From positions 609,883 to 673,882 of the forward strand of contig NMRA01000059.1 in assembly GCA_002633005.1 (NCBI GenBank): a stretch of DNA of 64,000 nucleotides. Reading direction: 5' to 3'. Below, one piece after another: positions 1,807 to 61,121 of this stretch; the first letter of the stretch is position 1, and each line of letters opens with the position of its first letter. The stretch is from Phoronis australis. Taxonomy: Eukaryota; Animalia; Phoronida. Position numbers and translations under genes: made by a program. The notes beneath the pieces were generated by a model, which did no database searches, was not told the DNA's origin, and saw only the letters and a list, made by a program, of their open reading frames with translations.

Positions 1807-3361
1807 TTATCTGTAGAGTTGTAGGCCTACAGGTTTTGTACATCTGCAGTGGCGCACGAGATAGTTGTTGTATTCTTGGCTTTGATCTTTATGCTCTTTC
1901 TTCAGCCAACGACAACGTTTCCGGTAATGAGTTTCCGTAGTTGTCGGATCATACTGCTCACACACGCATTTTAGTGTGAGGCGCTTTGCATAACTGCCGT
2001 CGTCTGTTTTCACCCGTTCTTTCTCCCATTTACAATGTTTACTCTTGTGGTCCTGGACGCCTTGGCCGTAGGTGTACTTAGCTTCATCGTCGCCTGCAAA
2101 TCAATAACACAAGTATGGTGTACTGGGGTCTTTTTCTTTCACAAAATGAAATTAATTTGTTCTTACGGTTCCTTTTCACAGTTGCCTAAAAGGGTTTTGC
2201 CAAGTATTTATGAGCACAGCACGTACACGTACACTAGAACTGAGTTATAGAAATTGTATCAGCAACTAGCAGTTATGTGTATATTCTAAGAGCTTGTGAT
2301 TTTGCTCAAGTAATATTTAATTATTTTTCACAAACAATAGTGTGGGTTTTAAATTTCTGACTTAAGTCACATTTCACGAAACAGACTCCTAGTGAAAACA
2401 AAATGCAAAGTTAACATGCCTGTATTCTACAGTAAATCTAATAATGCTATAAAGCTCAATCAAACCACGTATTTCGGTTTGCCAATGTGTTGCCGGTATT
2501 TAGTCTACGGTGTAACGATACACACTTCGAGTAGAATAATGCGGTATTTCACTTAATTTCCGCGAATCTCGCGGCGGAATATGAAGCCCGGGATCAATTT
2601 GAATGACATACAGTGCAAGGTAGAACATTTTGGGATAATGATGGAGACACAAAAACTTGTAAAATTGGTAAATAATTGCATTTTGGCAAGCTCCATATCA
2701 CCACAACATTTCTATCAAGCCAACTCCAAATTTTAACTTAACTTTTACTACCGCACTAGGCCACCAGCCCACAGTTCACAATATACAAACTTTATACACG
2801 CGTGCACAGATATTAAAGATTCAATATGTCGCTGATGACCACCGTTGTCCTTTACAAATACATTGAAATGTTTATTGTCCTCGAAGATGAGACCGGACAT
2901 CACTGTTTCTAACGTATCAATATGATAAGAGCCTAGTTCTGAAATCTACCAGGACTGGGCAACGTACAGTGTAACATGAAATAATGTGTTTTTGTCACAA
3001 CCTCTCCTGTATTACAAATGTGACATGTTACTTCATTTGGAGGAATACCATATTCTTTGCCGTTTTCAATTTCTAATTTGACAGTTGAACATCTTATATT
3101 CGCTACGTAATATATCTGCTGTTGCCTCAACTCAGCCGAACTACAGTAAACCAACACTGAATAATAACATCTCTCTGCCTTTTTGAAGTCTGGCAAGATA
3201 TTGTTCATCGCAAGTTTCCTGGTTAAAACCATACATGTCCAAAACCAGTTGTATAAAACAGGTTTTTAATAAATTTTAAATCACTTACCTCCACTTTCAC
3301 TGGAATCGCTGTCCGACCCGCTGCTGGAATCAGGGGGGAGTTCGTCACTATCCTTCGGCAT
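1807..3361 (-). CDS. Double H-x4-C-x-W...CxC family member 1, 119 aa; exons 3361-3289 and 2093-1807
   Basis: Exon 1 is MPKDSDELPPDSSSGSDSDSSESG, ending G|GTAAGT (phase 1). The acceptor is TTGCAG|GC. Exon 2 is DDEAKYTYGQGVQDHKSKHCKW...LKCVC...HYRKRCRW...YLVRHCRCTKPVGLQLYR*. Spliced length is 73+287=360 nt. TATAAA lies at 3449-3444. Confidence 0.8.
2933..3232 (-). mobile_element. Non-LTR retrotransposon (LINE) ORF2 C-terminal remnant in the intron of member 1
   Basis: KLEIENGKEYGIPPNEVTCHICNTGEVVTKTHYFMLHC resembles the LEIETGRY..IP..ER.C..C....EDE.HF...C C-terminal motif of LINE ORF2 proteins. Confidence 0.7.
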
Positions 3362-3443
3362 TGTCTGTTTTTTACGTTCCGTTCGCGCTTAATTTGACTT
3401 GACAAAACGTAAATTCTACCTGTTCTTGCAAGTCTGATGCTCA

Positions 3444-7017: not shown

Positions 7018-7099
7018 TTTCTTCGATTCAGGTTTAAAACGCTACCGCAAAATATTCCGCGAAGGTTAACACAAAAACTGCTTTACACGGTGAAGCGTT

Positions 7100-7415: not shown

Positions 7416-9399
7416 TTTTAAGCATGACATGCATTTTGTCCCGCTACGAATTGATCACTTTTAAGGTTATGTACAATAGGACCATACCGTCAAGTCTGAG
7501 CGTTTAGTCAAATACCTACATACTAACTGAAGATTTTAATTCAGTGATATATGCATTTTTTGAACATAGAAAGTCAAGTTGGATTGCTGACTAAGTACAA
7601 ATATCGTATTAATATGGTCACGTGACCATGTCTTTTCAGTATTATTTAGCCAAATAAAAAGGTACATTCATAATAAAACAACAGTTTCAAGAACATGGAC
7701 AAATTTCATTTCGGACAGTTGCCACCAGGTCATCCTGATCAAGCTCGCCATCTCGTGGGAGAGTAGGGTAGAAGAGGCACACGAGCGGCAGAACTTGAAG
7801 TATGGAGACCTGAAGAATGACTGCCACGTAAACGGCTGGAGATTTTGGAGTTTTTCTGTGGAGGTTAGCTGCCGTGGTTTTCCGGCTAGTTTAGTCACTA
7901 CTATGACGAGGTCTCTAGGCGTCTCTGTGATAGGAATGAAGGCTCTTCTATGCGATGTGGCCACCGAAGCTGAACAGGCATCTTGTTGGATTTGGATGAA
8001 GCACCAACAACAATGCCATCAACAACCGTCAGACAGAGCCTGATCAACTCTGTTGTCCTGCCTACTGGAGATGGTCTTGGTTTAGGGACGAAACCATTAA
8101 GGACAGTAGGAGACCAACGGATGATGACTGTTGAGCACAGTTACATCAAGTGTTTAAAGTATGTTGATGTACAAGATAAAATCTCAGACACGCTATTACA
8201 GTTTTTAAATTACCATTTTGTTTCCATCTTTTGCGACTTGTGAGTTTCTTTATTGAATTCACAAAAGTCCTATTATTGATCGCTCCTGATGCAAAGTTGG
8301 AACACTTAAAAATAGTCTCTAACATCTAACAAAATTTTGTGGAGCAGTTAGGCTTAATTACAATTCCTGAAAGTTCATACGAATCCAATCAGACATATCT
8401 TAAATATAATGTTCCCAAGTTAGCTAAATACTCCCACATGACCATAACGCGTTAGACTTCTATATTTCTCGCAAGTAATATCATATTATTTAATCCGTGA
8501 CGTAAATAAATGAAAATAAACTAAAGCAAGCCAGTTATTTTCAAGTTTTTATTCGCAAATTTCATTCAGATTTTTGAACCTCCAGAATCAGAAGTAACAA
8601 ATTATAATTTTGAAATTTCACTTTTATGCGAAGACTTTTATAAAAAGTACACATAAAATACTTTTACGAATTGTTAATCTTACTTTTTGAAATAAATGTT
8701 ATGAGTTATCCACTCCTGCGAGCTTCTCGAAAACTCACCCACGCAGGAAAACAATTGTTTATCGAAAATCAACTGTCATTTTGAACTAAAAGTACCAGAA
8801 CCCTGCCACTAACTTTTCATAACTTTCCGGAGGATTCCCTGATTGCGGAAGTTGAGGGAGTTGACTGAGAGTGAAACAACCATTTCTTTATTTCATCTTT
8901 ATTCGATTTAAAAAATACATATTACCTGTTTTTGATTTAACTTGTTACATAAAATGTTCATGCAAGTCTTTTGTGCTAAATTTTCCAGAAAATTTCCACA
9001 AAATTTTTACTTAATGGGAGAAGAAAGCCAACAATTCCTCACTTTTTGTGTGCTCATGCGGCAAACTTTTAAAAGTGCGAAAGGCACTCTGGAAAATCCG
9101 CAAAAAAGACTCGTATCAACGGGCCTGTTAGGGTCGTTACCATTGGTTACAATAACTAAGAACAACCCCATATTCATGTTTTATTCCTTTACCTGCTACG
9201 TTATAAAGGCAGACAATTTGTAAGTATCCTGAATAGAGACCCTTGGTAGATTCAAACGAGAACTCAACCTCAATTTGCACGATTGAGGAAATATACATTG
9301 AAATGTGCACGTCGTGTTATATCCAAAGTTCCGACAACGCAAATGACGCCTATATTGAAAAACGGAAAGTTGAAACAAATATCAGCCTCTTAACTTCCT

Positions 9400-12819: not shown

Positions 12820-13200
12820 GGGAATTTCAGGGTCACATCTCTACAAATAAATATTTCACAGAAGGAACCCGGTGGGTTACTTAATTACAAGAGATAACAC
12901 ACACATTTCCGATACCCAAAGTGTAACTGAGTATCGGAGCATAGTACCAAATGGGAATGGCCCGTATTGGCCGATTGCCTACCAACTGGGTCGAGCAAAG
13001 CGCCAAATTCAATAACAAGTACAAAGTGGGTACAAACTGCCAAATGGGCAAATATCATATAAAGTACCAAGTGGGTACACCAAACAGCCAACTGAGCTAT
13101 AACAACCTGCAAAGCAGGTTCCGGACAAGCTGAGTGAGCAGATCAGCCGGAGTGATAAAAGAGATATTGTAAGGAACGTGGTGTTGTGGCTCAGTATGTA
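12820..13200. mobile_element. Interspersed repeat; inverted copy inserted at about 47735-48168
   Basis: Reverse-complement similarity over about 380 bp (shared ORF-track peptide MQVVIA.LAVWCTHLVLYMIFAHLAVCTH) and internal TGTACCCACTTGGTACT subrepeats. Confidence 0.75.
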
Positions 13201-22100: not shown

Positions 22101-25100
22101 GTTTTTAAAGAACAGAGAACGAATAGAAGATTCTCTTTAAGTCAAGATACGAAAATACTAAGTGGCAACATTAAAACAACAGCATAAACAGGGAGGGGTC
22201 TGGGGCATTTTAATGGAAACCACGCGTGGTGGAATAGGAGTACAGTTTCTCTTTTATTCAAATTAGGTTGAAGACACGATTGTGTTTTTTGTTTGACAGC
22301 ATACAATACTCGCTCGTAGTCTCCAAACAATCTCCTATCTTCAGGCGTGCAGCTGTGAAGCAATAAATAGGTCTCTTGCTGCAAATATCTGTTATTAACT
22401 AACACTGATATCACGGTAACCTTTGATGGACATGACTTACCCACGCTGTGAAGCAGAAACTGTAATACTCGAAAAAATGAAACACGATCAATAAAAACTC
22501 ACCGACATCTTCCAGAGGAGGGCAGGAATAATCTCGTCACTTGGAGGTTGGTGGAATTGAAATAATGATAATTGTAGAAGTGTCCTGCGTACATTCCCAG
22601 TATTATAAAAACAGGCAAACATTATTTATGCAGTTTAATGTTTATAAAAACGTATTCTTGTTGTTACTGGTGGTCTCCAGTAATAAACAAGTGTCATCGA
22701 GAGTGTTCGTCATTCAGGTTTCGACGAAGTCTTTCTCGAAAATTTCTCTCGTAAAAATCGAAAAACATCGACAGTAATTTTTCACCAAGAGACAAGAAAG
22801 CAAAGGAGCGACCAACTATGACAGAGCAGGGAAGAACCGTTCCACCGTCGAGTGCAGTTTTCAACGGTACGGTGTCGCTATTTAACGATGTTATGCATCG
22901 CAATTTCTATACCATTTAGTAATGATGGCGTTGTTGTTTTGATCAGTCTAAGAATAGCCAAATTTCGTTACAAACTACACGAAGTTGTTTTTGGCTCAAA
23001 AATCAAACTGAGCATAACTTTCGTGTGCCGTTTTGGAGAAAAACATCAGCCCTGAAAGCGAGATTTTTGTGTTCTTGTCAACGTCTTAATGTTCGGCCAT
23101 TTTGTTGCGAAACCGGATCGTTAGACTAGAATAGGCCTGCCCAGTGATTTTTTTCTACTAGTCGTCAGTTTCACGAGTGATTTTTAAAATTCTGTCGCAT
23201 ACTAGAATTTGATTGATGGACGTGGAATTTGCGTTATTCAAGCTTCGTTAAACTTCACAGAGTAGTAAAGGGAGAACAAGCGCAATGTAGATTGTCAAGC
23301 CCTCGTAACAAACGTTGAGACATCCTTAGGGTATGCGTGTGAGAATTATCAAAGGCGAAGGAAGGCTTGGTTCAGTGTGGGAGGGAGGGGGGGGGGGGGG
23401 GNGTTATACCCGCCAGCAACAGTTTTACCTCTTCTTTGGTCACTTTAGAGAGTGAGCGACAAATTAATTGATTTCGCTAAAGTTTTACATCTGTGGTCCC
23501 AAAATCAGTTTTCTACAGGTGCCATCAACGAGCCTCCTCTAAGAGTTGGGTTGTATATCAAATGATACACACTTTCTACAAAAAGAGAGTGACAGTAGAT
23601 TCGATTATTCCTTGCCAGAGAAGGGTTCCCGGAAAAATACAATTTTGAAATTGTCGACTCTTGAAAATCTGCGTGGTCTAAGGCCTTTTTTAAACTGGGA
23701 CTGCCTGACAAAAATGTCCTGACCAGGTACCCGAAGAGTAAACCCTTCACTCACCGTTTACAAATGCTCCCTAAATTTGTCTCCTACATGTTTTGCTTTG
23801 AATTTCTTTTCACGACTATCGCTGACCCACGCTGCCCGCCTATGGTGGCCTCCACGAAGGTTTCACCGTCACGTCTGCCAAATATTGAAGGCACATACCC
23901 TTCGGTTCACCTCACTCCCTTCTGAAAACTGAATTAATTTATTTTGGACAGTATAATACTACTTCATCTTTTTCGTAGAGAACTTTGGTTTGACCGATTT
24001 TTAAAATCAGCTGTTTCGAAAAACTTGTGTAAATTGATAAATACAATTTATGATTAGACGAAAAGATCATAGACTCTTTGAAATAGAATGTTTATCTTAC
24101 TGCAAACTTAGTTTCAAGGCAAATCGTCCGCGTCTATAACAAATCCTTACTTGCAAATTCGCGGCACCATACATGTACATAAGGAAATTTAACAGAAGGA
24201 AAAATTGAAACGTAAGTATTAAATTTTCAATTTGTTTTTAAAGAATCCTTAATTAAAACTCTTTTGTGTAGCCTTGTGGTTAATCACGAATCTTATTTAT
24301 TCAATTCCTACTTTTATATATTTCGATCAATGTGAGAAAATACAAAAAAAAAATCACCGTACACAACCATTCTACTGTTCACGTCCTGATATACCTGATT
24401 AGATTATAGAATAGACATGTGCGCATTGCTCTAGTCTTTATCCACTCACATTCAAGCAGACAAAATCTTGTATCCAATAACAATTTAGTTGCTGAATGGG
24501 TATCCAAATACCAATTCCTTAAGTCCGATTCTCACGTTTTGGTACATATGTGATAAAAATCTCTAATTATCCTCAAAATATGTTGATGCTACCGGAAGTA
24601 GAAGTCATGAACTCAGTCTCATATCAAAAAGAATTCTGAACGGTTATCTTAAAAAAATACCTTGGAATAGAGCATATATTCTTTTGTTGTTTTAATCGAA
24701 CAATCTATACTGTTACTGGTGTATGTCCTCCAAATCATTCAAGCAATCATTTCTTTGTCAAGTAACACTGCGTGGCAGCAAGCACAAAATAATTATAAAT
24801 AAATAAAACGCTATTTCTAGTACATCTAACTTAAGTTACAATAAGATTGCATGACCACGCCTTTCAAATACCCCAAGGCATAATTTTTAAGGCATATTTG
24901 ATTAATTCCAAAGATATACTACAATTAGTTTCATTCACCTTGAATGATACTAATCCACCCAAACACGATTGTGACGCAGGAGCTGAAAGGTCAGCTTGTG
25001 CAAGACTTGCAAGCATCCTCATTTTTGTCCATACGGCCATTTTGAAGTGTTTTTTGATCCTGATACCAATATCATCATTTGTATGCATACATGAATCTAG

Positions 25101-26366
25101 GGCTTGATTTATTTTTGATACTTGCAGTCATCATGATTCAAGGTTAATATCGAATGATTATTTCCCTAGCTGTCATTTCTCCAAAATATACATGGTAGAC
25201 AAACAAGGACAAGGAACTGCAACTTTTATAAGTTGTTAGCAATGTTTGTCCACATGACCAAAGATCCTCGGATTGCGTCAAGTTCTTCGGGAGATATAAA
25301 TATTTACGATTTCAGCTAATTAGTAACTGATTATGTAACTCAGGATTAATGAGGTCAAAATTGTTTGCCGCTTGAGTATTGGTAAAAAAAAGCAAGTTAA
25401 AATTCTCATTTGGACATAACATTTGCACATAATTGCCTTATTTTGAGTGTTATAGACATATTCAGTAGGAAATAGTAGTGATTGTGAAATTGTAACGTGA
25501 CCTTGACCTTGAATGAAAGCAACTAAATCGAGTTCCTTGGATAACAAATCGGGGTAAAAATCCTCAAGTTTCTTCCAGTGGCTCGAGATATTTTATTTGT
25601 TTAAACATTTAAAAACTATTGTTAATTAGGACGTAATTATGCATGAATATCACGATTACTGCAGTCAAAATTGTTTGCTCTATATTGAAATTGAAAAAAG
25701 CACGTCTGGTCATATGTACAAGGGATGTCAATTTCTTCAAAAACCTGCACAGAGGTGCCTTATTTAGACCCTTATAGTGGGTACCTCCTGAACAAAAAAG
25801 AGTAGACTGTAAAAGTTGTTATTAAATCGTAGTGAGAAAGCGTGTAAATGTTGAAGGATTTAATTTTGAGCCACGACACAAAGAGTATATTCTATAAAAC
25901 ACAATCTTACGTTAAGGACTAAACTGCTTAAAACTAGAAATTTTTGGTGTGATGACGAAGTGTTTCCAAGTACAGTTTCTAAAATTAACTGATTGGGTAA
26001 TCAAGTTTGCTTAGTAATGACACCTGTTAGGTGAATTTTGAAAATAATTCAAATCGAAGTTTGAGCAACGAAAACAAAAAAATAGACGGTTTCAGAATAT
26101 AAGAGTTTTAACTTTTTGTGCTTGTTGACATTCCTTCGGACAAAATATCATCACCCCAATTGATCATCAGTAAGTGGTCTTCACCGAAACTCAATTTTCA
26201 CCTCACATGCTACAGTTTGCACAATATTAGCTCACATTGCAAGGTTCTACAAACCTACGTGTTAGAGTTTTTGGCACACCAGTTAAGACCGAAATATCGC
26301 GAATTGAGAAGCGTTTGTCAAAAGTAGACACCCTTCAATTGCGGCTACGTCTTCTTGCTTTCACAG

Positions 26367-26593
26367 GAAATAAATGGACGGCAGACTACGAGTACCATTC
26401 TCATCCCAACTGTGTTTGGGTTTGTGGACAGGTCCAGAACATAAGGGGCACTTCATACTATCCATGGAGTCTTGCATGCGTGTGTGGCAGGCATGGTACA
26501 CGTGAAGATGGGCACTACAGGGAGGAATGTCAGTACTTACGTCTGAGACAGAACCAAGAGCAATTTTACATATGTCGTTGTCGGTGCCGTTAA
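26367..26593 (+). CDS. Family member 4, exon 2 only (exon 1 not located)
   Basis: A polypyrimidine tract and TTCACAG|GA give a phase-1 acceptor. The exon reads NKWTADYEYHSHPNCVW...LACVCGRHGTREDGHYREECQY...YICRCRCR*. Both motif repeats are present, with W replaced by Y in repeat 2. Confidence 0.72.
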
Positions 26594-27825
26594 GAACAGG
26601 AACTAATGTCAAGACCAAATATTTTTTTCAGTGGAGAAACTTCGAAAGACTTTAGTGACCGAAAATTGCGCAAAAATACATGCTCCGACGTGACCTTTCA
26701 CGTGGTCCACAAAAGGACGTTCGTCACGAAACGAGATATATTGTCGAAAGAAACTCAAATAAGGTCGTGTGACGTCAGTTTAAAGTTTCCTTTGTACTTC
26801 TGTCAGAATGCATTTTGTTTTTAAGCTACTCTACAATTACATTCAATTATGAATACGTTTTTCAACAGTGTGTGTTTTACATTATTACAAATGATTGTAC
26901 AAAATGTAATAAATTTTTACTTCTTTTACTCTGGGTTGAATTTTTCTTTTTCATGTTTGCAATAGTACACATGACATACGAATTCCTAAAGTCGAAACAA
27001 ATAGCTAAAACTACAAAATGTCAACTCTTAGCACGCCGTAATATTTCACTGAGTCGTCGCTGACACTAAGACGGCATAAGATTTCATTATATTCGAAGTA
27101 GTCTTTTCGCTACATCAGTTGCGTCACAACTGATACTTTTTGGTCTTGTTGTCACATTGATGCCCAAACCTTTTGTAGCTGTCAAATCCACGGATGTTAA
27201 TGATATACCGGTAGTCTTTAATTGCCGATTTGGATGTTTCCGGAACATTTTCGGCCTTGTTCGTGCTAAAATGTAAAATGTTTGTCGTTCTACCGCTGTG
27301 TATATCTAACTCAAGAACAATGCCATGTGTAAGGCCAAAGCCTCACAAGCGAAACTATTCAAATCCTGAAATCATTATGAATGCGACGCTTCTCAATATG
27401 AGGTAACGACCTTAAAGTCTAAATACGGCATTTTCTGTTAGCACTTAAATGAAACAATCCTCAATATCACACCAGAGCTGAAGTGAGATTAAATTGATTT
27501 TCTGAAAATAGTGGGTGGAGCAAATAGAAAACTATATATTTTTTGTCTAAAATTGACACTGAAGCCATGTCCAACTTAGCTATGAGGTAATAGAGACTTG
27601 TACCAGTTATTTTAAGAATTTAAAAGTTTACTGACGTAGCCACGGGGGTGCACAGCGGAGCCTTGATCTCCCTGGTCGGAACTCATTTCAATTTTGCGTT
27701 ATCACCAGGCTATCTCTCATTTCAGACCGAAATCAGGCTAAGGCAGAAATTGTGTTTACAACTCAAAGCCAAAAAGACAGAAACGCGTACTCTGCTCGGG
27801 AGCAAACAGAAAAACAAAACCAAAA

Positions 27826-28358
27826 GACAAAAAATCTAGTGTCTGTAAACCCTTCGAGAAACAGGTACCGGGCTACCTCAGTCACTGAGCGTATATTTCA
27901 ATAATCTCTTTCGACCGATGAAATGTATTCCATTTTCTTAAAAGGGTGAAAAAACGAAAATCAAATTCAAGAGCCACGCAGCACAATACACCTTCAGTGC
28001 GTTGTAGAGCCTATCTCAGTGGGAGCGTGGTACTTATATAAGGACACGTTACACTGTTGATACTTCAGAAAACAATAAATGATGGCACGAAAATGTGAAT
28101 TATTACAGCGTCGATTCCAAACAATGGGACCTGCCAACGCCACAGTGACGATAAATGCAAGTGGGAAAAAGTTGGAACTAGAAAGTGGAAAAGTACGTGC
28201 ACAGACAACTGCAAAGGGAAGCATCCGGATGGAATGACAGACGAGCACAAGTCGGACACGTGCGAGTGGATTAAAGGAACCTATTGCGGGGCGAACCTGC
28301 GGAGTACTACTACTTCTGCCGTTGTGTCTGCGGTCGCTACACGTTGACTAATCTCTAA
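27826..28358 (+). pseudogene. Frameshifted family member 5 with a decayed exon 1
   Basis: Acceptor TTACAG|CG at 28109. The exon reads SIPNNGTCQRHSDDKCKW...STCTDNC...EHKSDTCEWIKGTYC, then shifts frame near 28287-28292; the terminal YYYFCRCVCGRY is in another frame (stop at 28358). An upstream relic at about 27826-27864 encodes SVNP and has a GT donor, like exon 1 at 50180 (MSFRSVNP), but lacks an ATG. Confidence 0.7.
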
Positions 28359-30581: not shown

Positions 30582-30842
30582 ATGAGCTTCAAGCAAGTCC
30601 CGCTCAGGAGACAGAACGAGGCTCAAAGGGTTCCTTCTTGGAGTGTCAAGCTTAGATATGATTATGAAGTGCACAAACATAGCGAATGCAGATGGACTCA
30701 AAAGGGGGATGAATGGACTCGGACATGCAAATGTGGTAACCAAGAAGACGGAGAAAAGGAATTCTGTGGATCGGGAGAATGCAAATGGATGAAGAAAATG
30801 TACAAGAACGATCATTACTTGATCCATCGCTGTCATTGTTGA
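30582..30842 (+). CDS. Family member 6, intronless, 86 aa
   Basis: Single ORF MSFKQVPLRRQ...YEVHKHSECRW...RTCKC...FCGSGECKW...YLIHRCHC*. An exon-1-like basic MS N-terminus is contiguous with the Cys domain. Confidence 0.8.
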   Translation: MSFKQVPLRRQNEAQRVPSWSVKLRYDYEVHKHSECRWTQKGDEWTRTCKCGNQEDGEKEFCGSGECKWMKKMYKNDHYLIHRCHC

Positions 30843-43014: not shown

Positions 43015-43345
43015 AACACTATAAATTACACCACGCATTTAGCAAAACCCAGTTGGGATCAAGCAATAGAGGCTAATAATTCAGTTGGGGAAAACCCGAG
43101 TCATGAACTGCGCGGGAAATTTTTCACCAGACTTTCAAAGGTAGATTTTGGTGTCACTCATTTCGCCGAAGAAAACACTTTGGAATTTTTTCCAAAATTT
43201 CCAGAGAAGAACAGTATAAAAGATCTTGTTCCGTTAGCAAGACGAATTTCTCTGTCTAACTAAAACTACCAAGACCGACGAAGAGGCAAAATGAGCTGCA
43301 GAGGCTTTATTGCTCCACGAAAACAAAAAGGTAAGAAAGGGTACA
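43015..43345 (+). repeat. Promoter and exon 1 cassette duplicated at about 52980-53305
   Basis: Near-identical from TATAAATTACACCACGC to CAAAAAGGTAAGA. Confidence 0.9.
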
Positions 43346-44049
43346 TGTACTTATCTCGTTGATTCATACACAATTATCATACAATTATAGCCTTTTGGAA
43401 AAGTAAAATTGTAGTAGTGATCAAGCCAAGTTTTCTAATCTTTCTTTTCCGGCTATACGAAATGAGCAGACCTGTTTATCCCAGAAAACAGAAAGGCCAC
43501 GGTAAGAACAATTTACACGTTAATTGGAAAAAAATCAGCAGTATACTTCTGATAAACGAATATAACCACAGTTCGTCGTCTATGATCTTCGTTTTGTAAA
43601 CATTGTACAAACCGCTGTATTTCATATCTTTCTGAAAAAAATACCTAATTAGATTTTGCCACTAGAATAAAAAACAATTGTTACACTTTATGTGTTTTTG
43701 TTAAACATGTCTTAAGAAAGATTTGCTCCCGAAATACATTTTTAAATGTAAACATTTCATTTCAGAGCCTGTGTGGGAGCACGGTAATAAGTATTTACAC
43801 GGGTCGTGGGAGATGCACCTAGATCCTTCGTGTGCATGGGTCTGGAAGGAAACAACAGAGCCAGGCTTTTTCTTTGGAAGTACAAAGAAGTGGATATTGA
43901 CACGGCACTGTCAGTGCAAACGTCACAAGGACGGGCACAGCGAAGAACACCGCAATGCGGAGTGTAATTGGATCAAGAAAGAATACTACAGCGCGAATCC
44001 TAACGAATTTTATTGGATGCGTCGCTGCCGTTGCAAGAAGTTCGAGTAA
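43291..44049 (+). CDS. Family member 7, 107 aa; two candidate first exons (43291-43330 or 43462-43501) and exon 2 at 43766-44049
   Basis: MSCRGFIAPRKQK G|GTAAGA and MSRPVYPRKQKGH G|GTAAGA are both 40 nt and phase 1. The acceptor is TTTCAG|AG. Exon 2 is PVWEHGNKYLHGSWEMHLDPSCAW...RHCQC...HRNAECNW...RRCRCKKFE*. AATAAA lies at about 44133. Confidence 0.85.
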
Positions 44050-45064: not shown

Positions 45065-45192
45065 GTGCAAGGGAATTTTACCAAAGCATCGAACAATATA
45101 ACACTCGAATCTACAAAAACAAGGAGCGGGAATTTTTGTAAAATTCCCGAGCGGGAATTTTTGTAAAATTCCCGATGGGAGCTATATTAACC
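45065..45192 (+). promoter_or_regulatory. kB-like palindromic tandem and TATA upstream of member 8
   Basis: The 25-bp unit GAGCGGGAATTTTTGTAAAATTCCC occurs twice (45124-45173). TATATTAA lies at 45183. Confidence 0.55.
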
Positions 45193-45273
45193 GTTCTTCG
45201 GGTTGTAAGGATAATCCAGTAGGAGATTTTGTCTACATCGTTACAAGCAAGGCAACCGCAGTGAACGGACAAA

Positions 45274-47448: not shown

Positions 47449-48471
47449 ATGAGCAGACCTGTTCATCCCAGGAAACAGAGAGACCACGGTAAGAACAATT
47501 TACACGTAAGCTGAAAAAAAAATCAGAAGAAAACATTTGATAAACTAATTTAATCACACTTCGTCTATGATATGTTTTGTAAACATTGTATGAACCGCTT
47601 TACTTCACATGTTTCTGAAAAAATGTCTACTTAGATTTTTTCTCTAGAACCAAAAAGAATTGTTACATTTTAGATGTTTTTGTTAACACGTCTTAAGAAA
47701 AACGTGCTCCCGAAATACGTTTTTAAATGTAACAACCCTGCCCATGTGGCACACACTGAGCCACAACACCACGTTCGTTAAAATATCTCTTTTTATCACT
47801 CCGGCTGGTCTGGTCACTCAGCTTGTCCGGAACCTGCTTTGCAGGTTGTTATAGCCCATTTGGCTGTTTGGTGTACCCACTTGGTACTTTATATGATATT
47901 TGCCCATTTGGCAGTCTGTACCCACTTGGTACTTGTTATTGAATTTGCCGTTTTGCTCGACCCAGTTGGTAGGCAATCGGCCAATACCCATTTGATATTA
48001 TGTACCCACTTGGTACTATACTAACATGTGCCACTTAGTAGCCGACACTCAATTACACGTTGGGTATCGCAAATCCAGTGTGATCACTTATTTAAGGTAC
48101 CCATCTGGTACCGTCTGTGAAATAATTATTTTAGAGCTGTGAGCCTGAAATTTATTTATCCCCAATAATTCATTTCAGAGCCTAGAGTGTGGAAGCACGG
48201 TGATAAATATTTACACGGGTCGTGGGAGATGCACCTGGATCCTTCGTGTGCATGGTCCCAGAAGAAAATAGAAGTTCCAGACTTTTTCTACGAAATTACA
48301 TGTACAAGGACGTGTAAATTGACGCGGCACTGCTCTTGCAAACGACACAAGGACGAGCCCAGAGAAAAGCACTACAATGCGGAATGTAATTGGATCAAGA
48401 AAGAATACTACAGCGCGAATCCTAACGAATTTTATTTGATGCGTCGTTGCCGATGCAAAGCGTTCAACTAA
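47449..48471 (+). CDS. Family member 9, 110 aa; exons 47449-47488 and 48179-48471
   Basis: Exon 1 is MSRPVHPRKQRDH G|GTAAGA. The acceptor is TTTCAG|AG. Exon 2 is PRVWKHGDKYLHGSWEMHLDPSCAW...RHCSC...HYNAECNW...RRCRCKAFN*. It is a close paralog of member 7. Confidence 0.85.
47735..48168. mobile_element. ~430-bp insertion in the intron of member 9
   Basis: Absent at the equivalent position of paralog member 7 (tttaaatgtaaacatttcatttcag, 43741-43765). Homologous to 12820-13200. Confidence 0.8.
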
Positions 48472-50179: not shown

Positions 50180-51425
50180 ATGAGTTTCAGATCCGTCAAT
50201 CCACGACCTCAAAAAGGTAAACTGTTTAGTTTTAAAACTACCACACTTAGCTTTTGTAGATTGTGAGAATTATTCATTACGCTTTATCTATGACGTTGTC
50301 TATGTCGTCATATTGCTACAATTTCTTCGCAATTTTTTACGGAGACTTGTATATTTTTTAACCAAAGGTATTCAATTTGTAGGTTAAATGTCATTGAAAT
50401 AGATTAATTTTTGAGTTTAAGTTGAGGATAATGACTGATATTTCGCATTTTACTGGATTTGACGAAGACGGCTTTTTTGATGTTACGTCTGCTGTTAACC
50501 AACTTAAAGGGACAGTAGTTTTCAAAAATAATTAAATTTCCCCCACTCGAGAATTCATTGAAATCCGTTAATTTTTAAACTGTTGTTGTGCCCTTTGGGC
50601 ACTGCGCGTTTGTGCGTTTTTAGTATCAATTTGCTCCCGAAAAGTGAAGATGAATGTTTTCTAACTGTGGCGGACATGCATCTTTTTGCGTGTTCTGTAT
50701 TAAACTACTTTTGTTTTAAAACATATGTGTCAAGTAGTCATTGTAAATGTCGACTAAATTCATTTCATAAAAATTGGACACAACTCAGCTACAAATTTTA
50801 AAAGTCATTTCAGCTACAGAGGGCAGACTTTAATCAAAGATAAACAATAACAAATTGAACGATATGTTTGACACCCTGTATAAGTGAACTGTGGTAACTT
50901 GTATCCGAGAGCATATTTATTCGTATGTTATCGTCGTGTTTTGTAGATATAAGGATTTTCCCAAGAAAGCTAATGTAATCACGTGCTTCGCTTGAAATAC
51001 AAGGCGTATTTCGCGAAGTCTTGTGTTAATTTGCAAGATCCTTGCCTCTACGAAACGCACACCCATCAGTTGGAAAGCAGATGGGACGTCGCGTTTTGAC
51101 AATTCGGTACTTTATAAGAACACGTCACAAGTTCAAACATATGTGCATACACCCCTAACAATTTGACGATTTTTCAATTATAGATTACGAAGCCCCCCCT
51201 ATCGATCTTGCTAAGAACGGTACATGGGAGATGCATACAAAAAATTCCTGTGCATGGACGAAGTATGACAGTACTAAGTGGAGGAGGACTTGTAATTGCC
51301 AACCGAATAATAGGTCACGAGTAGATTACCACGAAATGTCAGCTTGTGATTGGTTTAGACAGACATATCAAGGAAAGTACTACTTCGTCCGCCGCTGCGT
51401 GTGCGGATCCACTTACGCCGGTTAG
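50180..51425 (+). CDS. Family member 10, 92 aa; exons 50180-50216 and 51184-51425
   Basis: Exon 1 is MSFRSVNPRPQK G|GTAAAC. The acceptor is TTATAG|AT. Exon 2 is YEAPPIDLAKNGTWEMHTKNSCAW...RTCNC...YHEMSACDW...RRCVCGSTYAG*. TATAAA lies at 50091. It is a paralog of member 8. Confidence 0.87.
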
Positions 51426-51995
51426 AAAACAAGTGGCGGAGATGATGTCGTTTGAATAGACAGCAATTGGACAAATGGAACTCTCATCGAACACAGTATT
51501 TCTGGAAGTTTTTAACTTGAATAGAATTCAGGTATTCCAGTCAGTGACAGTTTCCTGTGCAATCGAAAATTTATCCTTGATTCACAATTGCCAATTAAAA
51601 TAAAACTTCATGTTTTACCGAGTTTGTCTTTGAACACCCGCGTCACACACCTGCGTATTTTAACAATAAATAGTAAACGTGGGAAATTGTGTTTGCATTT
51701 TATGACATAGGAGAGTGGGGGGGGGGGGGNGGGGGCGAGGGAGGAGAAATGAAGATAGAGAAAGGAATTCAATTAACAAGTCTTTGGATAATGGTAATTA
51801 AGAAAGCAGATTTAGGGGAAATCTTCGGGACAAAATCCAGGGAACTCTCCGCTTATCAACAATTTCACTTTCACATTTCATGCACTTTCGTCTCTCATAA
51901 ATCTTTTTTCAGGCATTATTTTTTACAGTTTGTAACATGCGCGACGTATTGTAGTTACGAGCGCTGGGACTAAATCGAGTGACAACTGATGAACT

Positions 51996-52293
51996 GCTAA
52001 TGCGCGCATATATTACATTGGGGACATTTACTGCTCACTAAACCACTAATGTGCGCATATATTACATTGGGGATATTTACTGCTCACTAAACCACTTATG
52101 TGTGCATATATTACATTGGGGATATTTACTGCTCACTAAACCACTAATGTGTGGGTATATTACATTGGGGATATTTACTGCTCACTAAACCACTAATGTG
52201 TGCATATATTACATTGGGAATATTTACTGCTCACTAAACCACTAATGTGTGCATATATTACATTGGGGATATTTACTGCTCGCTAAACCACTA
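51996..52293. repeat. 49-bp minisatellite, 6 copies
   Basis: ACTAATGTGTGCATATATTACATTGGGGATATTTACTGCTCACTAAACC units, head to tail with no unique spacers. Confidence 0.9.
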
Positions 52294-53252
52294 CATCCTC
52301 ACTTGTCGGTTTTACAACCGGTTTTTAGCCCAGTGGCCGTACCAAAAGTTACAATCTACCAGTTTGTGCAGGACAAGTCTATTCTTTCAGTCAAATTTGT
52401 ACAAAACTAAAAATTAACTCTGTAAGATTTCGTACTTTCTGAGTTAGTAGAAAGCTTTTATTTTATGCTATCAATGGGGGAGTCACATTATGTCCATGTC
52501 TTTGTATCAAATTGTCGTCTTAAAAATAAAAAGGGGACATTCATAGCAAAACAACGGCATCGATAACAAAGTTCATTTGATTTAAATGTCTTTAAACACC
52601 ATATTACAAATATGAAACCCCAAACACTACGCTGCTGGAATTTTCTAAATTGGTCTTAGTTTCATGCATTTTTTTTTGATTTTTCAGACATGTAACACAA
52701 GTCCTATTTTGATAGACCCTCGTACACAAGGGGAACATTTCAAAGACATTTTCTAGCAGTGTTTTGTAAAGCAGCGCACAAAGCGTAGTTTGTGGATGTT
52801 ACAGCGATTTCTGAAATATGAGGTTCCGAAGTTGGTCAAGTCGTATTTAAATGTTTACTCAACCACGCCCACAAGTGCCTTTGTACTGGTTCTGACCATC
52901 CAGGCATTACGTTCCACCCATTCTAAATAAAACAGACCTTCACGAAAAGAGAGACCTCGGTTCGAACAGAAAACTACAGTATATAAATTACACCACGCGT
53001 TTAGCAAAACCCAGATGGGATCAAGCAATAGAGGCTAACAATTCAGTTGGGGGAAACCCGAGTCATGGACTGCGCGGGAAATCTTTCACCAGACTTTCAA
53101 AGATAGATTTTGGTGTGACTCACTTCGCCGAAGAAAACACTTGGGAATTTTTTCCAAAATTTCCCGAGAAGAACAGTATAAAAAATCTTGTTCTGTTTGC
53201 AAGACGAATTTCTCTGTCTAACTGAAACTACCAACACCTACGAAGAGGCAAA

Positions 53253-53923
53253 ATGAGCGGCAGAGGCTCTATTGCTCCTCAAAAACAAAAAGGTAAGACT
53301 GGTACATTAATCAGCGTTTCCTTTTTGATACCCACTATACAGATTAATTTATATTTTGTGAACGCTTTCAGTATGCAGCTTCGATCCAATTTTCAAAATG
53401 GATCAAAAACAGTGTCAACACATATTAATTAATATTGAGATTTTCTTTTTAAAATCAATGTCAGCACTAACGCGTTGTCATGTACAAAAGTTCATAACCG
53501 CCACGGGTACTCAAGCATTTTTATACAAAGTCAACCAATGGCATATTACGTTGCATAAAATACGTAATTTTGCACAGATTGTCTAATTTTAATACAAACA
53601 AAAATCTTGCTTTGGAAATACAACATGAAAATTCCATAAGGTCAACCGCACTGACGCTCATTTAATTGCAGATAATTACTACGACAGTCCTTACGATTTC
53701 GAACTACCACCAAATGGTACGTGGGAGGTGCATGAAGATGAAGAGTGTGTATGGGAGAGGAATAGCGACCAAAATTGGATTCGACGGTGTTATTGCGCGT
53801 AACTATGAAAACGACGTCAAAGACGAACATGATACACCCGATTGCGTTTGGTTTAAACGGGAGTATCGGGGGGAATATTTCTTCATTCGCCGTTGCGTTT
53901 GTGAAAGTCCATACTGCGGCTAG
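53253..53923 (+). pseudogene. Family member 11 with a single frameshift; exons 53253-53292 and 53672-53923
   Basis: Exon 1 is MSGRGSIAPQKQK G|GTAAGA. The acceptor is TTGCAG|AT. The exon reads ...PNGTWEVHEDEECVW...RRCYCA* with TAA at 53800-53802. Repeat 2 (EHDTPDCVW...RRCVCESPYCG*) is intact in a shifted frame. Confidence 0.78.
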
Positions 53924-55928
53924 TGTCAAACCGTTTTAGATTTACAGATGGAACTTTGAACAGACACAATTATTTGACTTTACAAGTTCGTCATTAGGAA
54001 TATTTAGGCATTAGCGTTGAAAGACGATTTGACATATTTCAACTTACGGAACACAGCCCTTGATGAGCAATGAACACTGAGACGATGATGATCTCATGTT
54101 TTTTATGTCTTACAAGAAACATTTACCTTCATCTCTAGTTAAAACATTTAAAGCAGTCATTTGTCACGTAAGGATTGCGACAGGGAGAGGAGCGTTCGAT
54201 TTTCGAAGCACATCCTCAATGTGCTATTTTGGCTTTGATACATGTATACTGCACCCGCCGCGTGAGGTGCAACAAGGAGTTAGTCTTCGTACACCTGTAT
54301 TTCGATATGATTAATTAACGTTTTATTAATAAAAGTACATGTGTAAGATATATGTGTGTTTATATTCAATGATTGTTATGATAAATTGCCATAAAACAAA
54401 ACACTTGTGCCTATGCGAAACACTCGGCTACTGTTCGAGACTTCACTCGAAAACTGACCTAACTCACATCGAGCTAAGTTAGACTCCTGCTACACAATTG
54501 GCCAGTTTCCTCGTGAGGTCTCCGGTCATTTGTCGTGCACACATCAACAAAACCAAACGCACTCGCAAGTAGAACAATGCAAAAATGGAGACATTGAATA
54601 GAAATACATGTGCGTCATCACTGTTGACAATGACCATTAATTGTAAGGGGTAGTCGTGGAAAAGTTAAATTGAGAAGATGCGTTCTAATGCAGAAAGACA
54701 ATTTTTCTAACGTTGCCGAGATTGCGGTGTAAATATCTTTAAGGCTGTTTTAACAATCAGTCGAGACGCCAATGTCCACCTGTCAGTAAGTTAAGGCCAC
54801 GCCTTTTAGTGACTTCACTAGGAGAAGGCATAACGTAAGTGTAGAAAAAGGCGTATTTAAGGGGATACTATCGGCGAGAAAATTTTCTAATGTCAGATTC
54901 AACGTGTGACTGAACCTGGAAGCCCCTCGCTCCCTACCAAACACTGTCCTGGAGGAGAAAACTCCCTCTCGATAACTGTTGCACCATTGAACTGGTGTCA
55001 CCGGCTTTGATTTTAGCGAATGTCTGACAGAAAAGCTATGATGATTGAGGATTCGTAATTAAAAAAAACCAACGGATCTTGTTGTTTTACATCTTTGGTC
55101 ATAGCTAACATCAGAAGCATTTACAAAGCCATGGCAACGGGTCACGAGGTTACACCTTTAACTTTTAACTTCGTCACCGGCTTGTGCATATGGATTGGTT
55201 TAAACTTCACATTGGATCAAAAGATAATATTAGTTTTGGTGGCCATGAAAATAATGTACATAGACTCAAGACGACTTATTGAAACAAAAGAAAATAAGTC
55301 ATTCATAGCATGCGTAAGGTCGACTTTATTTTTTCACCAAGTCATCGCGTATTTGTGAAGAATTTATAACTGTGTTTTTAAAGAAGTGAAGGTAATTTAT
55401 CGCTCCACAGTTGTTCGATTATAAAAACGAAAGCCCGAAACATGACTGATTGCAAAGCAGACTTGGTATAAGCTGACAGTAAAGTGCGAGAATAACGCGG
55501 CAGGATTAGTTAAGTTTCGAGACTAAGTGCGAGTCGAGACTGAGTTCGGAGCATAAACTCTCATGGGATTTGGTTTGTAACATCTTCAAAATTTTCGAGC
55601 TCACACTTTCAAGAGTTTTAATTATAAATTCATTACGATTTCATGCTATATTTAGTTTTTTAAAAAAGGCCCGAGTCACTGAGATGGGAAAAACCCCGTT
55701 GAGTTACAAGTTTTATTTTGCAGCTTGCAGGAACATTCGTGCCACAAAAATAAGTGTGATGCGGAAAATTTTCCATAATTCGGAATTACACAATACAAGC
55801 GTGCGGGAAATTTCTCGTAAAATTCCAGTACAATCTTATAAATTCGTTGTTCTCGAATGAAAATTTAGTCCAACGAAGGAAAGTTTCTAAATACAACAAC
55901 AAACCAGAAAAACGTGTGGAGAAGAAAG

Positions 55929-56858
55929 ATGAGCGGCAAGAAACCGATTGGTCCAAGAAAACAAACAAGTACTGTAAGACTGTTGTATTTCATTGGAAAT
56001 TATTTGGGATGAATTTTGAATAGAATAGACTTGTGGAAGTTAGCTTTGAGCGAAGTTGTAAAACCACAAATGCATTGTCTTTGTAAATTTATTACAAATT
56101 TCCAGATATCGCAATTGCCTGTCAAACATTCGGTGAAATCTAGGCAGACGTCTTTCAATAAGTACTGGCGTGTGATCTGGCTCAGTGGTAAAGCGGTAGC
56201 CAGCTACTGACGAGTTAATGAGTATGATTACACACTGTTGCTAATATCTCAAGATTATTTCTCTCGCAGAGAATGTCCCTGCAACAATTAAATAGCAATG
56301 AGTTTTGTTCTTAGCATTAAATATCGGTTTAAATCCATCCAATTACATACTCAATACCCGGTGACGGTCACTACATGCAATACAGCAGTATTTTTGTACC
56401 TTGGTTAAATTATGTACTCATTTCTCCTATTTCTTTTAAACACAAATCTAGAAAACAGAGAAACTTGCAATATTGGAGTGAAGGATATCTGCCTACTGAA
56501 GACAAAGGAATCTTATTAGCATTGGTGAGAATATGCAACTTTTAACTTACAAATTACAGGAAAACGAGAGATTTATACCTACGTATTCGGTACTTTTTCA
56601 GTTGAATATGGCAGTCGTACCAACGAAACCACACAGGGAACTTGGTCTGGATGGTTGAAGACAGTTGGGAGTGCTCTCATTGGATCTTGGCGCTGTGTTT
56701 GTAAATGGGTGCCAAGCACACAGGCGGTTTTCCGTTCCGTGGGCGGTGGTACCGGGGTTGGCGGTCGCTCGAGCGGTGGTCACCGGGGCGCCGGTTACCG
56801 GGGCGGCGGTCATTCGAGCGGCGGTTCCCGGGCCGGAGGTCGGTCTGGAAAGAAATAA
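55929..56858 (+). CDS. Gly/Arg/Ser/His-rich derivative B, 98 aa; exons 55929-55968 and 56602-56858
   Basis: Duplicate of 37900-38979 with a tail 135 nt shorter, in frame. The donor is altered to A|GTACTGTAAGA by a 5-nt insertion. Confidence 0.6.
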
Positions 56859-58202
56859 TTCCTCCCCACGTTGCTGCAACAGAGCTGGCAGTTATTTTGC
56901 TAAGCTTTAAAAACAAGAAATAGGACGGTACCACAACCATAGATTGAACGAACGGACTGTAAAAAGACATTGATGCGATTGTGACGACAGATAAAGAAAC
57001 AGTAAGAAATACCAGCTTATACAGTGTGTACGAGGTCATATCGTCGATAATTATAAACACATAACGTTGGGACTGCATCAAAAATGTACTGCTGGTCCAG
57101 CAGTTGTGACGCTATAACATCTACTAAAAATGTTTTTTTACCAAATTAACTGCTAATAGTTTTCTTTATTCAGTTATTTACTCAGGTTGATTAATCAGCA
57201 TTCACCGTACATGTAGCTTAAGTGTACAGACAGTCTTTTGGAAAAAGTAAAATTCTTTTCTCACGAATTATCTTTTCTCACGCACCGCATGTTGTCTTGG
57301 CCAAAGGAGACTGTTAATGCACGATTCACAGAAGAAGACGACTGAATAGATTTTGGTTGTCTGGCAGTCTATTGCGAACCTGGCACTGAGTAGTTCTTTA
57401 ATTGTCTTGTTGGGCAATATCCTTACAAGGACTGACGGGTTTTTGTTCTGATATTTTCTGCATAGGGTGAATGATTTTTTTTCATAAAAACTGCTGATTC
57501 ATGTAAAAACAGTTGAATTTTGATGTACACTAATTCTGTTCCTTTCTCAGACAAGAACCAATTTTTGGGCTAAAAATAAATTGAAAATCTGACAATTGGT
57601 AATAATTGCTTGAAACCATGCTTGGCGCATAAACTCATCACTATAGTGTCAGGCAACATTACTGAACTTGGTCTTAGAGAACACGAACTGTTAAGTCTCA
57701 TCGAGCCCTGAAATCATATCTAATCTGGGTAAAGAAGGAGTTGAGGCCAATTTCATTTAACAGTTAGTTTTCTAAATAAAAACTTGAACTGAGCGGCCGC
57801 TTGAAATATCAGGGGTCCCAAGGTCTACAGTCCCAGTGAGTGTTTCCGTCTCAACTTATTAGGCTCATACCTACTACCACGCTTACTCAATAAATCGATT
57901 TTATCCAGTAAAGCCTGCGTCACTTGGAAAAACCAATCTTGTTAGACATTCTTGAGGAAAAAATATTACCGAAGAAATTCCCATTCTCCTAATAACTATT
58001 ACGCGAGATTTTCCCCTGTAAATGTCATGGACATCGTTCAATACACACTTTAAGCTGCATTTTGTCTATTAATAGCCTGTGATGTTTTTTTCTAAAATTC
58101 CCGAAGAATACCGTATAAAGTCTGTGTGCCGCAAGACAGATCCAGTTGAAGAATTTTCTACGACTAGATTAGTGTCGCTCTTCACAGCTGTAACGAAGCA
58201 AA

Positions 58203-61121
58203 ATGAGTGTCAAATCTGTTCCACCTCCAAAGCAAAAAGGTAAGACAAATTTGCCTAAATATAAACATCGCAACTAGCATAAGTGTAAGCCTTGACAACG
58301 TAGTTTTTTATTTTCAAAATTACACTTTTCGTACGCCATCAGAATTGCAAACATTCGTTGAAAATTTCCCTGCTTGGTAGAGGTTCCCAAAATGAATATT
58401 GATATTGACCTTGAATCAAAAAGGCTGTATGAGAAATAAAACACGTTCTCGGTAAAATATATTTTTAACGGTACCATTGGTAACCTAAATTTTCTTTATT
58501 GTACACGCAGGTTAGGGTTCGTCATTACCGAAATGTCCCTGAACAAGAATATGAGTTCCTTTCAAAAAGAGATACCGGTATGCTAAATGTAAGACTCATG
58601 AATTCCAATACAACTTTAGATAGCAGTATTTTTTCATTGGACTTATTTCGTAACCCTGAAGATGGTACAAGACTAAGGCGAAACGTTGCCGTGACTTACG
58701 AACTTTTTGTAGTTTTTGTTCATCGCGTTAGTTCTCACACATGGTGATTTAATTAATTACACTCTATAATGTAACGTTATTTTTTCATATAGAGGAGAGT
58801 TTGTTATTATGAATTAATTTTGCCGCTCACTCTGCGTGGCTCTCTGTAAACGATAAAAAACCCCGAGGGGATAAAAACCAGGTCCGTTTTTACTTTGCGA
58901 TGAACAATAGTTACTGTACATGTAGAATACTGTAGTCAGACGGGATACAATATCACGACCTGCGCTGTGAAAAAGTAAGCGAAACGTTGTTTGGTTTGAA
59001 ACAGTTGACCAAGACCACATACGAGTGTGTGTAATTTAATAACCAAAAAGCCACTTATAGAGAATAAGATATTTTACAACTTTATACACAATTTACTTGT
59101 TTTGAGGGTGTTCACATACTTAGTCGTTGATGTTTCGATGTTTTCGTTTGTAACATGTTCAAGTCCTACCACGAAGAGAAAATATTTGAGACCGAGTTTA
59201 TAGGAATGAAAGACCCAAGTCGATTCTCTTTTTAATTAAACAAAATGAAATGCAGAGAATAATTACATTACTTTCGTGAAAAAAGATTTTTACCATAAAA
59301 ACGATAATTTCGCTGTCAATATTGGCCTAGAAAATGTTAAATTTTAGTGTGCGCATTTTCTTTGTGTTGAGTGTCTTAAACTATTTTTGTTAATGAAATT
59401 TACGAAATTCCCCTAAACAAACGACTGTTTAATTTTCTATATCAATTTAGTTTCAACTATTGTGCTTTGATACCTTATGATCACCAACATTCTTATTTTG
59501 ATCTATTTTGAAAGTCTTTTTCATATCACCGGCTCATTCACAATTGATTTATATCAATAATTTCACTCACTTCGATCAATAAACACCTACGCTAAACTAA
59601 ATGGAAAAACCGATCGTTAAAAACTGCCTGCGAACACAGACAATGCATTTTACAATATACTTTGGAAAATAAAATGTTCTTAAAGAGACTTTCATGTACT
59701 TTTGATATTTTCTTTTAAATTCGAATAATTTGCGGATGAATGTTTGTGTAAGTTCGGTCAAGGCATTCACGGAGCATTTGCCTTAAATCGATATCGTTTA
59801 CAAACTCAGGTTGAGATACCAAGAATTGCAACTTTCACGGGCCAGTAAGTATTAACTATGAAACTAAGAATGCAAATTTATAAAACTAAGCTTGTTTTTA
59901 ACTCCCATGGTTTCTTTTGCATTAAGCATATCTCATGTCACATAAACATTTTCAATCGATGCCCAATTTGCCCAGCTTCGGTCATGCGGGTATTTTTCAT
60001 AATTGAATTCGATTTATTGTAGTTACACTAGGGTCGGATTCCTTTGGGAAAATCCCCTTCAATGAATGTTTATTGGACAGACTAGGGTCCTCCAAAATAA
60101 CTGTTAAGCTGGAAATTTTGGTTAATTTCCTCGACATTGAATTGCACGTTACTCATTCACTAAACACAAACAATTGTATAACAGTGGGTACTTTATTATT
60201 TTATTTTTGCTGTTAGCGAAATTAAGATAATAGAGAACTTCTCGATATATAGTACACCTCACCTCAAAAATTGTGGCTAGGGAAATGAACAATAAAAACA
60301 ACTGTTTTAAAAATATAAAAATATACGACAGTTATGTTTCATTGGAAACTCGTACCGTAATGCTGCAGAGATTAAAAACACATTTTGTTCATGTATTCGG
60401 TAACTGACAGTCCTACAGTGTATTTGACATGATGAACTACGTGGCTGCAAAATGTGAAACATCAAACCCCGTCCCCTCGAGGAAATTAGCTTTTGATTTG
60501 GACCATTTGCCGCTGCAAAATTGTTTTCAACTTCTTCCATACTTAGATGAGAAGTACGTTTTGGTCTAGCAAAGAACTGACAGTCGGTTATTGCCCGGCC
60601 ATGTAGGGCGGGAGCCTTCAGGCTGTTGAACAATTCTTTAGACGATTCGCGTAGGATAACCATGACTGATGAGCGTTAAATACCGGTAATGTGAAAGAAG
60701 CATAATGATTAAAACAAAGCGTTCTACTGGTGTCGAGGTGGTCAAAATTCTGCCAATGCAACAATGAGAATCTGATAAACCGAATGATACGTTTTAATGT
60801 ACGTAATAAACACTGCAATGAAGAGCTTTGTCATTTTTAGAGGCTAAATGGGAGCACGGGAAGAAGTATATACATGGCTCGTGGGAATTGCACGTGAAGT
60901 CTTCTTGCCATTGGACCAACAAGCAAATCTGGGAGGAAGGCATTTCTAACGAGGGTAAATGGAGGTGGGAATTGACGCGGCACTGCGATTGTGATCTGCA
61001 CAAAGAAGACAAGGAAAAGCACTACAGCGAGGAATGCCATTGGGTTAAAAAGGAGCACCGCGGCCCAAATCCGACCGAATATTTTCTGGTTCGTCGTTGC
61101 CGATGCAAAGAGTTCAACTAA
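58203..61121 (+). CDS. Family member 12, 105 aa; exons 58203-58239 and 60841-61121
   Basis: Exon 1 is MSVKSVPPPKQK G|GTAAGA. The acceptor is TTTTTAG|AG. Exon 2 is AKWEHGKKYIHGSWELHVKSSCHW...RHCDC...HYSEECHW...RRCRCKEFN*. TATAAA lies at 58114 and AATAAA at 61136. Confidence 0.85.

Follow-up and report, generated by a model that had tools for sequence, protein, structure and literature searches.

The 64-kb stretch of the Phoronis australis genome analysed here (contig NMRA01000059.1, positions 609,883 to 673,882; referred to as the window) includes a cluster of genes for small proteins, each built from two repeats of an H-x4-C-x-W...C-x-C motif. We put the chances at about even that these proteins represent an intracellular module not described so far, with a predicted His-Cys3 zinc site in each repeat and variable target-binding hairpins, which has expanded by birth and death and probably serves in defence. 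Zinc binding, the targets and the immune role are inferred.

The doubled motif was found by six-frame scans at 12 loci between positions 1807 and 61121, three on the minus strand (1.8k, 5.9k and 9.4k) and nine on the plus strand. Full matches to H-x4-C-x-W-x5..32-C-x-C numbered 19, whereas shuffling the sequence in blocks 100 times gave a mean of 0.02 and a maximum of 1. A profile run over the six frames picked up these 12 loci again, and nothing else scored comparably in the window, which has 38% G+C, no depletion of CpG and abundant repeats. Exon 2 is open in ten copies and, in this assembly, frameshifted in two (28.1k, g05, and 53.7k, g11); the observation of at least 12 copies, 10 intact and 2 frameshifted, in the initial annotation is confirmed. 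The spliced models give proteins of 86–119 amino acids (aa) that share 15–73% pairwise identity and form three sub-groups, namely g01–g03 with acidic heads, g07/g09/g12, and g08/g10/g11. Plus-strand copies are basic (isoelectric point, pI, 8.5–9.3) and aromatic-rich, and the intact ones tabulated contain 6–8 Cys and 12–19 Trp, Tyr or Phe per 92–110 aa. The family features of the window are given below; first exons other than the five confirmed by RNA joins are sequence predictions.

1807..3361, minus strand: g01, predicted acidic exon 1 (3361-3289) and exon 2 (2093-1807), 119 aa
5952..7017, minus strand: g02, predicted acidic exon 1 (7017-6939) and exon 2 (6217-5952), 114 aa
9400..9909, minus strand: g03, predicted acidic exon 1 (9909-9852) and exon 2 (9695-9400), 117 aa
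21976..26593, plus strand: g04, candidate exon 1 (21976-22003, 28 nucleotides, nt) and transcribed exon 2 (26367-26593), with an RNA contig piece at 26368-26487
22818..28347, plus strand: g05, exon 1 (22818-22866) and exon 2 (28109-28347), with 6 reads and 1 contig
30582..30842, plus strand: g06, intronless copy, 86 aa, with weak sense-strand RNA depth
41951..41977, plus strand: 3' remnant of a g12 duplicate, inside a segmental duplication
43291..43330, plus strand: extra first exon, 90% identical to exon 1 of g11
43462..44049, plus strand: g07, predicted exon 1 (43462-43501) and exon 2 (43766-44049), 107 aa
45274..46181, plus strand: g08, exon 1 (45274-45310) and exon 2 (45940-46181), 92 aa, with 9 reads and a contig
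47449..48471, plus strand: g09, predicted exon 1 (47449-47488) and exon 2 (48179-48471), 110 aa
50180..51425, plus strand: g10, exon 1 (50180-50216) and exon 2 (51184-51425), 92 aa, with 22 reads and a contig
53253..53923, plus strand: g11, exon 1 (53253-53292) and exon 2 (53672-53923), frameshift near 53796, with 5 join reads
58203..61121, plus strand: g12, exon 1 (58203-58239) and exon 2 (60841-61121), 105 aa, with 4 reads and a contig

The first exons predicted for the minus-strand genes g01–g03 are 58–79 nt long. In g02 the first Cys pair is C-x3-C instead of C-x-C, in g06 the second His is replaced by Cys, and in this assembly g05 loses its final C-x-C to the frameshift near 28290. A segmental duplication relates 36.5–42.8k to 54.3–62.0k at 76–93% identity, and its left copy holds the g12 duplicate, from which exon 1 and all but a small part of exon 2 have been lost. 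A degenerate copy of a g07/g09 first exon without its ATG lies at 35780–35840, and an ATG at 62734 on the plus strand stands in the context of a family first exon, with no clear donor, and may be a further decayed copy.

RNA reads from four runs carrying the same species label, using ~18–19% of each raw run, were mapped to positions 22000–41900 and 42500–62400. The three junctions proposed in the initial annotation were all seen as GT-AG joins in the reads, at 45310/45940 (9 reads), 50216/51184 (22) and 58239/60841 (4), together with further GT-AG joins at 53292/53672 (5 reads) and 22866/28109 (6 reads). All five joins are on the strand expected of a stranded library, and the introns so confirmed, in g05, g08, g10, g11 and g12, are all of phase 1 and follow a coding exon 1 of 37–49 nt. 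The shared phase-1 intron after a 37–79 nt exon 1, proposed earlier for all spliced members, stands for these five genes. The g06 copy is intronless, and the 28-nt candidate exon 1 of g04 is shorter than the proposed range and reaches into the mapped stretch by only its last few nucleotides. No join of g07 or g09 was among those listed in the mapping of 42500–62400, and RNA coverage of g04 and g06 is weak.

The layout of the exons is interleaved. The g05 exon at 22818 is spliced over an exon of g04, and one RNA contig joins the exon at 43291 to a g08-type exon 2 across g07, which could instead reflect a haplotype difference. Alternative use of first exons is possible for the interleaved or nested exons at 21976–28347 and 43291–46181. 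In other samples the sequences that cover the g11 frameshift, namely all 3 reads of X3 and a contig of X4, do not have it, which makes it either an error of the assembly or a null allele that segregates.

Relatives outside the window were found by a one-round HMMER profile scan of 1.84 billion representative proteins; when each of the 11 window copies was left out of the profile in turn, 9 were still retrieved at E < 1e-3. The scan gave 13 relatives at E <= 1e-3 (best 7e-7), which were reached by this full scan only, and a profile-profile comparison of the relatives with the window copies gave a probability of 98.8 and E of 5e-17. They include five proteins of Watersipora subatra and one each of Bugula neritina, Mactra antiquata, Branchiostoma floridae and B. 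belcheri, and thus span Bryozoa, Mollusca (a clam) and Cephalochordata (amphioxus). XP_067949187, XP_067949371 and XP_067949236 (W. subatra), KAF6039737 (B. neritina), KAL4220697 (M. antiquata), C3YCW5 (B. floridae) and KAI8505070 (B. belcheri) share the two-repeat domain and its His/Cys positions. The relatives keep the His/Cys pattern, with one cluster lacking the last C-x-C; the first Trp is often Tyr or Phe, and the His-to-Cys spacing in Watersipora is 4–9. The proteins listed by accession here are uncharacterised and belong to no Pfam family. Stand-alone relatives have 100–145 aa and no leader, and often carry an acidic Ser/Asp/Glu head like that of g01–g03.

Their distribution places the family, with expansions of local extent, in at least some members of both protostomes and deuterostomes. 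Of the five Watersipora matches, four lie on a contig of one and the same length (61.08 Mb), a hint that the genes may be clustered in that species as well. In a 24-sequence tree, from which g11 was left out and in which two long proteins were cut to the domain, the window copies cluster together with weak support and on long branches, and their forming one clade is not rejected (approximately unbiased test, p-AU 0.53). The lineage-specificity ascribed to the family in the initial annotation does not hold for the family itself, given its presence in three other phyla, and is retained only for the expansion, which looks local.

Two Watersipora proteins, XP_067948808 and XP_067951882, combine a RING domain and a B-box-like segment with a C-terminal family domain. 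The former is named 'tripartite motif-containing protein 5-like' by NCBI and scores above the cut-off for three RING models, and the RING of the latter is below the Pfam cut-off (E 0.007). The two are 34% identical over 376 columns, the family domain included, and identity at this level throughout both makes a one-off fusion of gene models unlikely. As compared with tripartite motif (TRIM) E3 ligases, the family domain occupies the C-terminal place where PRY-SPRY and other domains stand, whereas the window genes are two-exon and stand-alone, without RING or B-box. According to a passage of PMC10445537, the C-terminal domains of TRIM proteins often serve in substrate recognition, with pathogen proteins and nucleic acids among the substrates; a TRIM class with uncharacterised C-termini is also noted there. 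The family domain is not among the C-terminal domains listed in part of a figure legend of the same paper (PMC10445537).

A simple hydrophobicity scan, in place of SignalP, gave no signal peptide in 11 window proteins or the 13 relatives, the highest value of any 8-residue stretch within the first 30 residues being <=1.25. In-frame stops lie 4–34 codons upstream of the ATGs, and TATA-like boxes 76–93 nt upstream in 6 of the 11 starts checked; both argue that the short exon is the first coding exon and that no leader exon has been missed. The acidic Ser/Asp/Glu head is common to g01–g03 and the relatives P0004, P0005, P0007, P0010 and P0013, with eight identical residues common to g02 and P0013, and may be a cluster of kinase sites. 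If the term 'effector' used for the family at the outset is taken to mean a secreted peptide, it is not supported, since no copy or relative has a hydrophobic leader and the domain is fused to RING/B-box-like proteins. The latter are a class that works inside cells.

The lack of a leader and the RING fusion make a reducing compartment most likely, and the His and three Cys of each repeat are read accordingly as a zinc site. The presence of two zinc sites per protein, one in each repeat, is considered likely. The H/C/C/C positions are kept in 90 of 91 cases over 23 repeats, the single change being the His to Cys of g06, and both codons of Cys and of His are in use: 461 of 990 codon pairs differ synonymously and 22 differ in the residue, all 22 tracing to that one copy. 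The motif His/Cys positions are under purifying selection. The Trp is kept in 22 of 23 repeats and its paired Arg in 16 of 23. Across phyla, in 22 sequences, five positions are invariant and three are conserved in at least 90%. Each site has four conserved Cys/His under purifying selection, as expected of zinc-binding domains in general. The exchange of His for Cys and the shift of spacing from C-x-C to C-x3-C suit metal ligands better than disulfides. The initial annotation had named a lack of spliced reads together with a dN/dS near 1 at the motif residues as a sign against function; five genes gave spliced reads, and the motif residues are constrained.

The rest of the protein varies. Codon models for six plus-strand paralogs gave an omega of 0.41 overall, with one class of sites at 0.10 (40%) and another at 1 (60%). 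In RNA contigs of run X4 (pieces on family genes, from 16 of 279), exon 2 differs from the genome at 90 of 1515 bases, as compared with 4 of 396 for exon 1 and the 5' leader (Fisher p 6e-6). Among 40 of the 216 variants, 20 codons are changed, 17 of them to another residue; no change is at a ligand position, and most of the coding changes lie in the linker and the first hairpin. Kept ligands and a variable remainder indicate a constrained scaffold, the rest being fast or free, and an arms race is suggested.

Structures were predicted with AlphaFold2 from exon 2 of g08 and g07, with 11–13 sequences in the alignment, giving a predicted local distance difference test (pLDDT) of 80.2 and a predicted template modelling score (pTM) of 0.66 for g08, and 79.6 and 0.68, respectively, for g07. 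Both models are all-beta with six strands in the order strand, hairpin, strand, hairpin and with the same hairpin register; as read from the secondary-structure strings, the first Cys faces the first Cys of C-x-C and the Trp faces the Arg. This predicted cross-strand pairing at the base locates the insertions at the hairpin tip. The Cys-to-Cys ring of the hairpin has 14–29 residues over the 23 repeats (18 in five of them), and net charge ranges from 0 to +5.

Foldseek against PDB and viral structures gave no match at E <= 0.001, and VIA-align found no chain at Z >= 5 among 48,161. The best fold matches were to the N-terminal beta-sandwich of vaccinia A46 (PDB 5EZU; Z 4.5, root-mean-square deviation 2.5, 58 aligned, and Z 4.9, deviation 3.0, 65 aligned), tied with small heat-shock domains. 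Identity to A46 is only 3–5%, and a Z below 5 may reflect a mere common arrangement; A46 binds fatty acid, as stated in a passage of PMC5156371. With both models, fold searches point to no clear family.

Sequence libraries were equally unproductive. Pfam gave no match at E <= 1 for 11 exon-2 proteins and none at the cut-off for 23 single repeats, and no profile of a defensin or knottin type was matched in these scans. Nothing meaningful was found among PDB sequences for queries A1, A2, A4 and A5 or one repeat, no usable match in the ESM Atlas for two members, and nothing relevant in PHROGs, NCBIfam, Rfam, phage, viral, prokaryote and metagenome scans. Word-seeded protein searches recovered no relative for A1 near (18 candidates), A1 longer (998) or A2 near (56). 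Two of the 23 single repeats match the CSL zinc ribbon PF05207 weakly around the hairpin and C-x-C-G, with 16.4 and 14.8 bits (E 0.0074 and 0.024) where the cut-off is 29.2 bits, but the match is lost with the whole protein, and the C-x2-C pair is lacking. Literature searches by motif, description and accession, which covered main texts, found no account of the family, although gene tables of genome papers could list the proteins; a motif in PMC11218377 belongs, in the passage concerned, to viperin and is unrelated. The initial suggestion that the family is possibly undescribed holds in all library and literature searches run, and the domain is rated as new, probably working like known zinc-finger and TRIM recognition modules.

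In the favoured scheme each repeat would form a strand and a beta-hairpin, its His and three Cys binding one zinc ion that would clamp the hairpin base, while the tips and linker would vary and set specificity. As part of a TRIM-like ligase, the module would select what is ubiquitinated, and the stand-alone window copies would bind their targets themselves, sequester them or act as competitors of the fused forms. Tandem duplication, loss of introns and frameshifts turn the cluster over. Together with the variable hairpins and the null copies, the loss of an intron favours a cluster that evolves by birth and death and whose products recognise targets inside the cell, probably in defence. Expansions of immunity domains have been reported for sessile or aggregating marine animals in part of PMC8195603.

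Several observations weigh against this scheme. Six Cys would also fit three disulfides. The B-box-like segments are a regular-expression Cys/His pattern in both proteins, with no Pfam B-box match at E 0.1, and the TRIM-like fusion is seen in one species only. Expression is low, with 4–22 join reads per gene in ~35 million records. Positive selection was not significant in the six paralogs (M2a versus M1a, p = 0.15); with 60% of sites at an omega of 1, relaxed constraint explains the variable part equally well. The 17 of 20 non-synonymous changes are close to the chance expectation of 78%, and the variant reads may stem from paralogs missing in this assembly. The same neutral sites and the non-significant test, together with the basic, aromatic-rich plus-strand copies, suit the main rival, in which the same zinc module is intracellular but non-immune, binding nucleic acid or a partner in the germ line, transposon control or development, with its variable parts drifting. 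We consider it somewhat unlikely, since exon 2 differs far more than exon 1 and leader in the same RNA contigs, g08 and g10 are 65% identical in exon 2 as compared with 75–78% in introns and 3' flank (stretches chosen by blastn and so biased upward), and the TRIM-like fusion fits substrate recognition.

Three further explanations fit less well. Cationic aromatic hairpins closed by a cross-strand Cys pair are shared with arenicins, the ring of 18 residues in five repeats equals that given for arenicin-1 and -2 in a passage of PMC10608444, and six Cys permit three bonds, as in disulfide-bonded leaderless antimicrobials of that type. This is improbable, given the doubled repeat, the variable ring size and charge, the RING fusion that points to the cytosol, and an invariant His and His-to-Cys swap that would be left unexplained. 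Moreover, BRICHOS domains of antimicrobial precursors have ~100 residues according to the same passage (PMC10608444), whereas the whole proteins here have 86–119 aa, with no signal peptide, BRICHOS propeptide or Pfam match. Metal buffering or detoxification would account for small, leaderless, multi-copy proteins with conserved Cys/His and, in some copies, an acidic head. Metallothioneins, though, are ~30% Cys with almost no aromatics, and 6–8 Cys per ~100 residues, 12–19 aromatics in the plus-strand copies tabulated, a predicted ordered beta fold and the TRIM-like fusion make this quite improbable. A divergent signalling family of the cystine-knot kind (two fingers, heel, six Cys) is extremely improbable: the C-hairpin-CxC-linker-C-hairpin-CxC order resembles the knot layout, but two C-x-C pairs would make too small a ring, and a leader peptide and any Pfam match at E <= 1 are lacking. 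Cystine-knot proteins were not among the convincing fold matches, an absence that does not exclude them.

A bolder form of the recognition-module reading is rather unlikely. The domain would be a new zinc-finger fold as old as the bilaterians and an alternative to PRY-SPRY in marine invertebrates, acting as a polymorphic intracellular sensor on TRIM-like ligases and in free clusters, with tips resembling antibody loops and interleaved exons adding splice combinations. A domain present in at least three animal phyla without a Pfam family or a clear fold match is uncommon, and the TRIM-like fusion suggests a function that lends itself to testing. Should the domain be a recognition module, it would be a new small variable binder for invertebrate cell-autonomous immunity and, for structural work, a compact scaffold of ~65 residues with two variable loops; whether or not it acts in immunity, the domain is new and merits curation. 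Two-exon genes of this family are easily overlooked by ORF-based annotation.

Two copies of another two-exon gene lie among the family genes, at 37900–38979 and 55929–56858 on the plus strand, with a 40-nt first exon and a phase-1 intron of the kind found in the family (join 55968/56602, 3 reads). They encode one R-C-V-C and a Gly/Arg-rich tail (pI 11.5–11.8) and have no Pfam match; their membership of the family is unsupported, since 30–79 of 500 shuffles score equally high. A 150-aa frame at 7591–8043 on the plus strand, also without a Pfam match, resembles a fragment of a non-LTR (long terminal repeat) retrotransposon. Interspersed repeats at 47740–48150, 12823–13202 and 33760–33925 show high RNA depth originating elsewhere in the genome, and one interspersed repeat directly precedes exon 2 of g09. 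Positions 51997–52293 hold a tandem repeat of 6.1 copies of a 49-bp unit with 95% matches.

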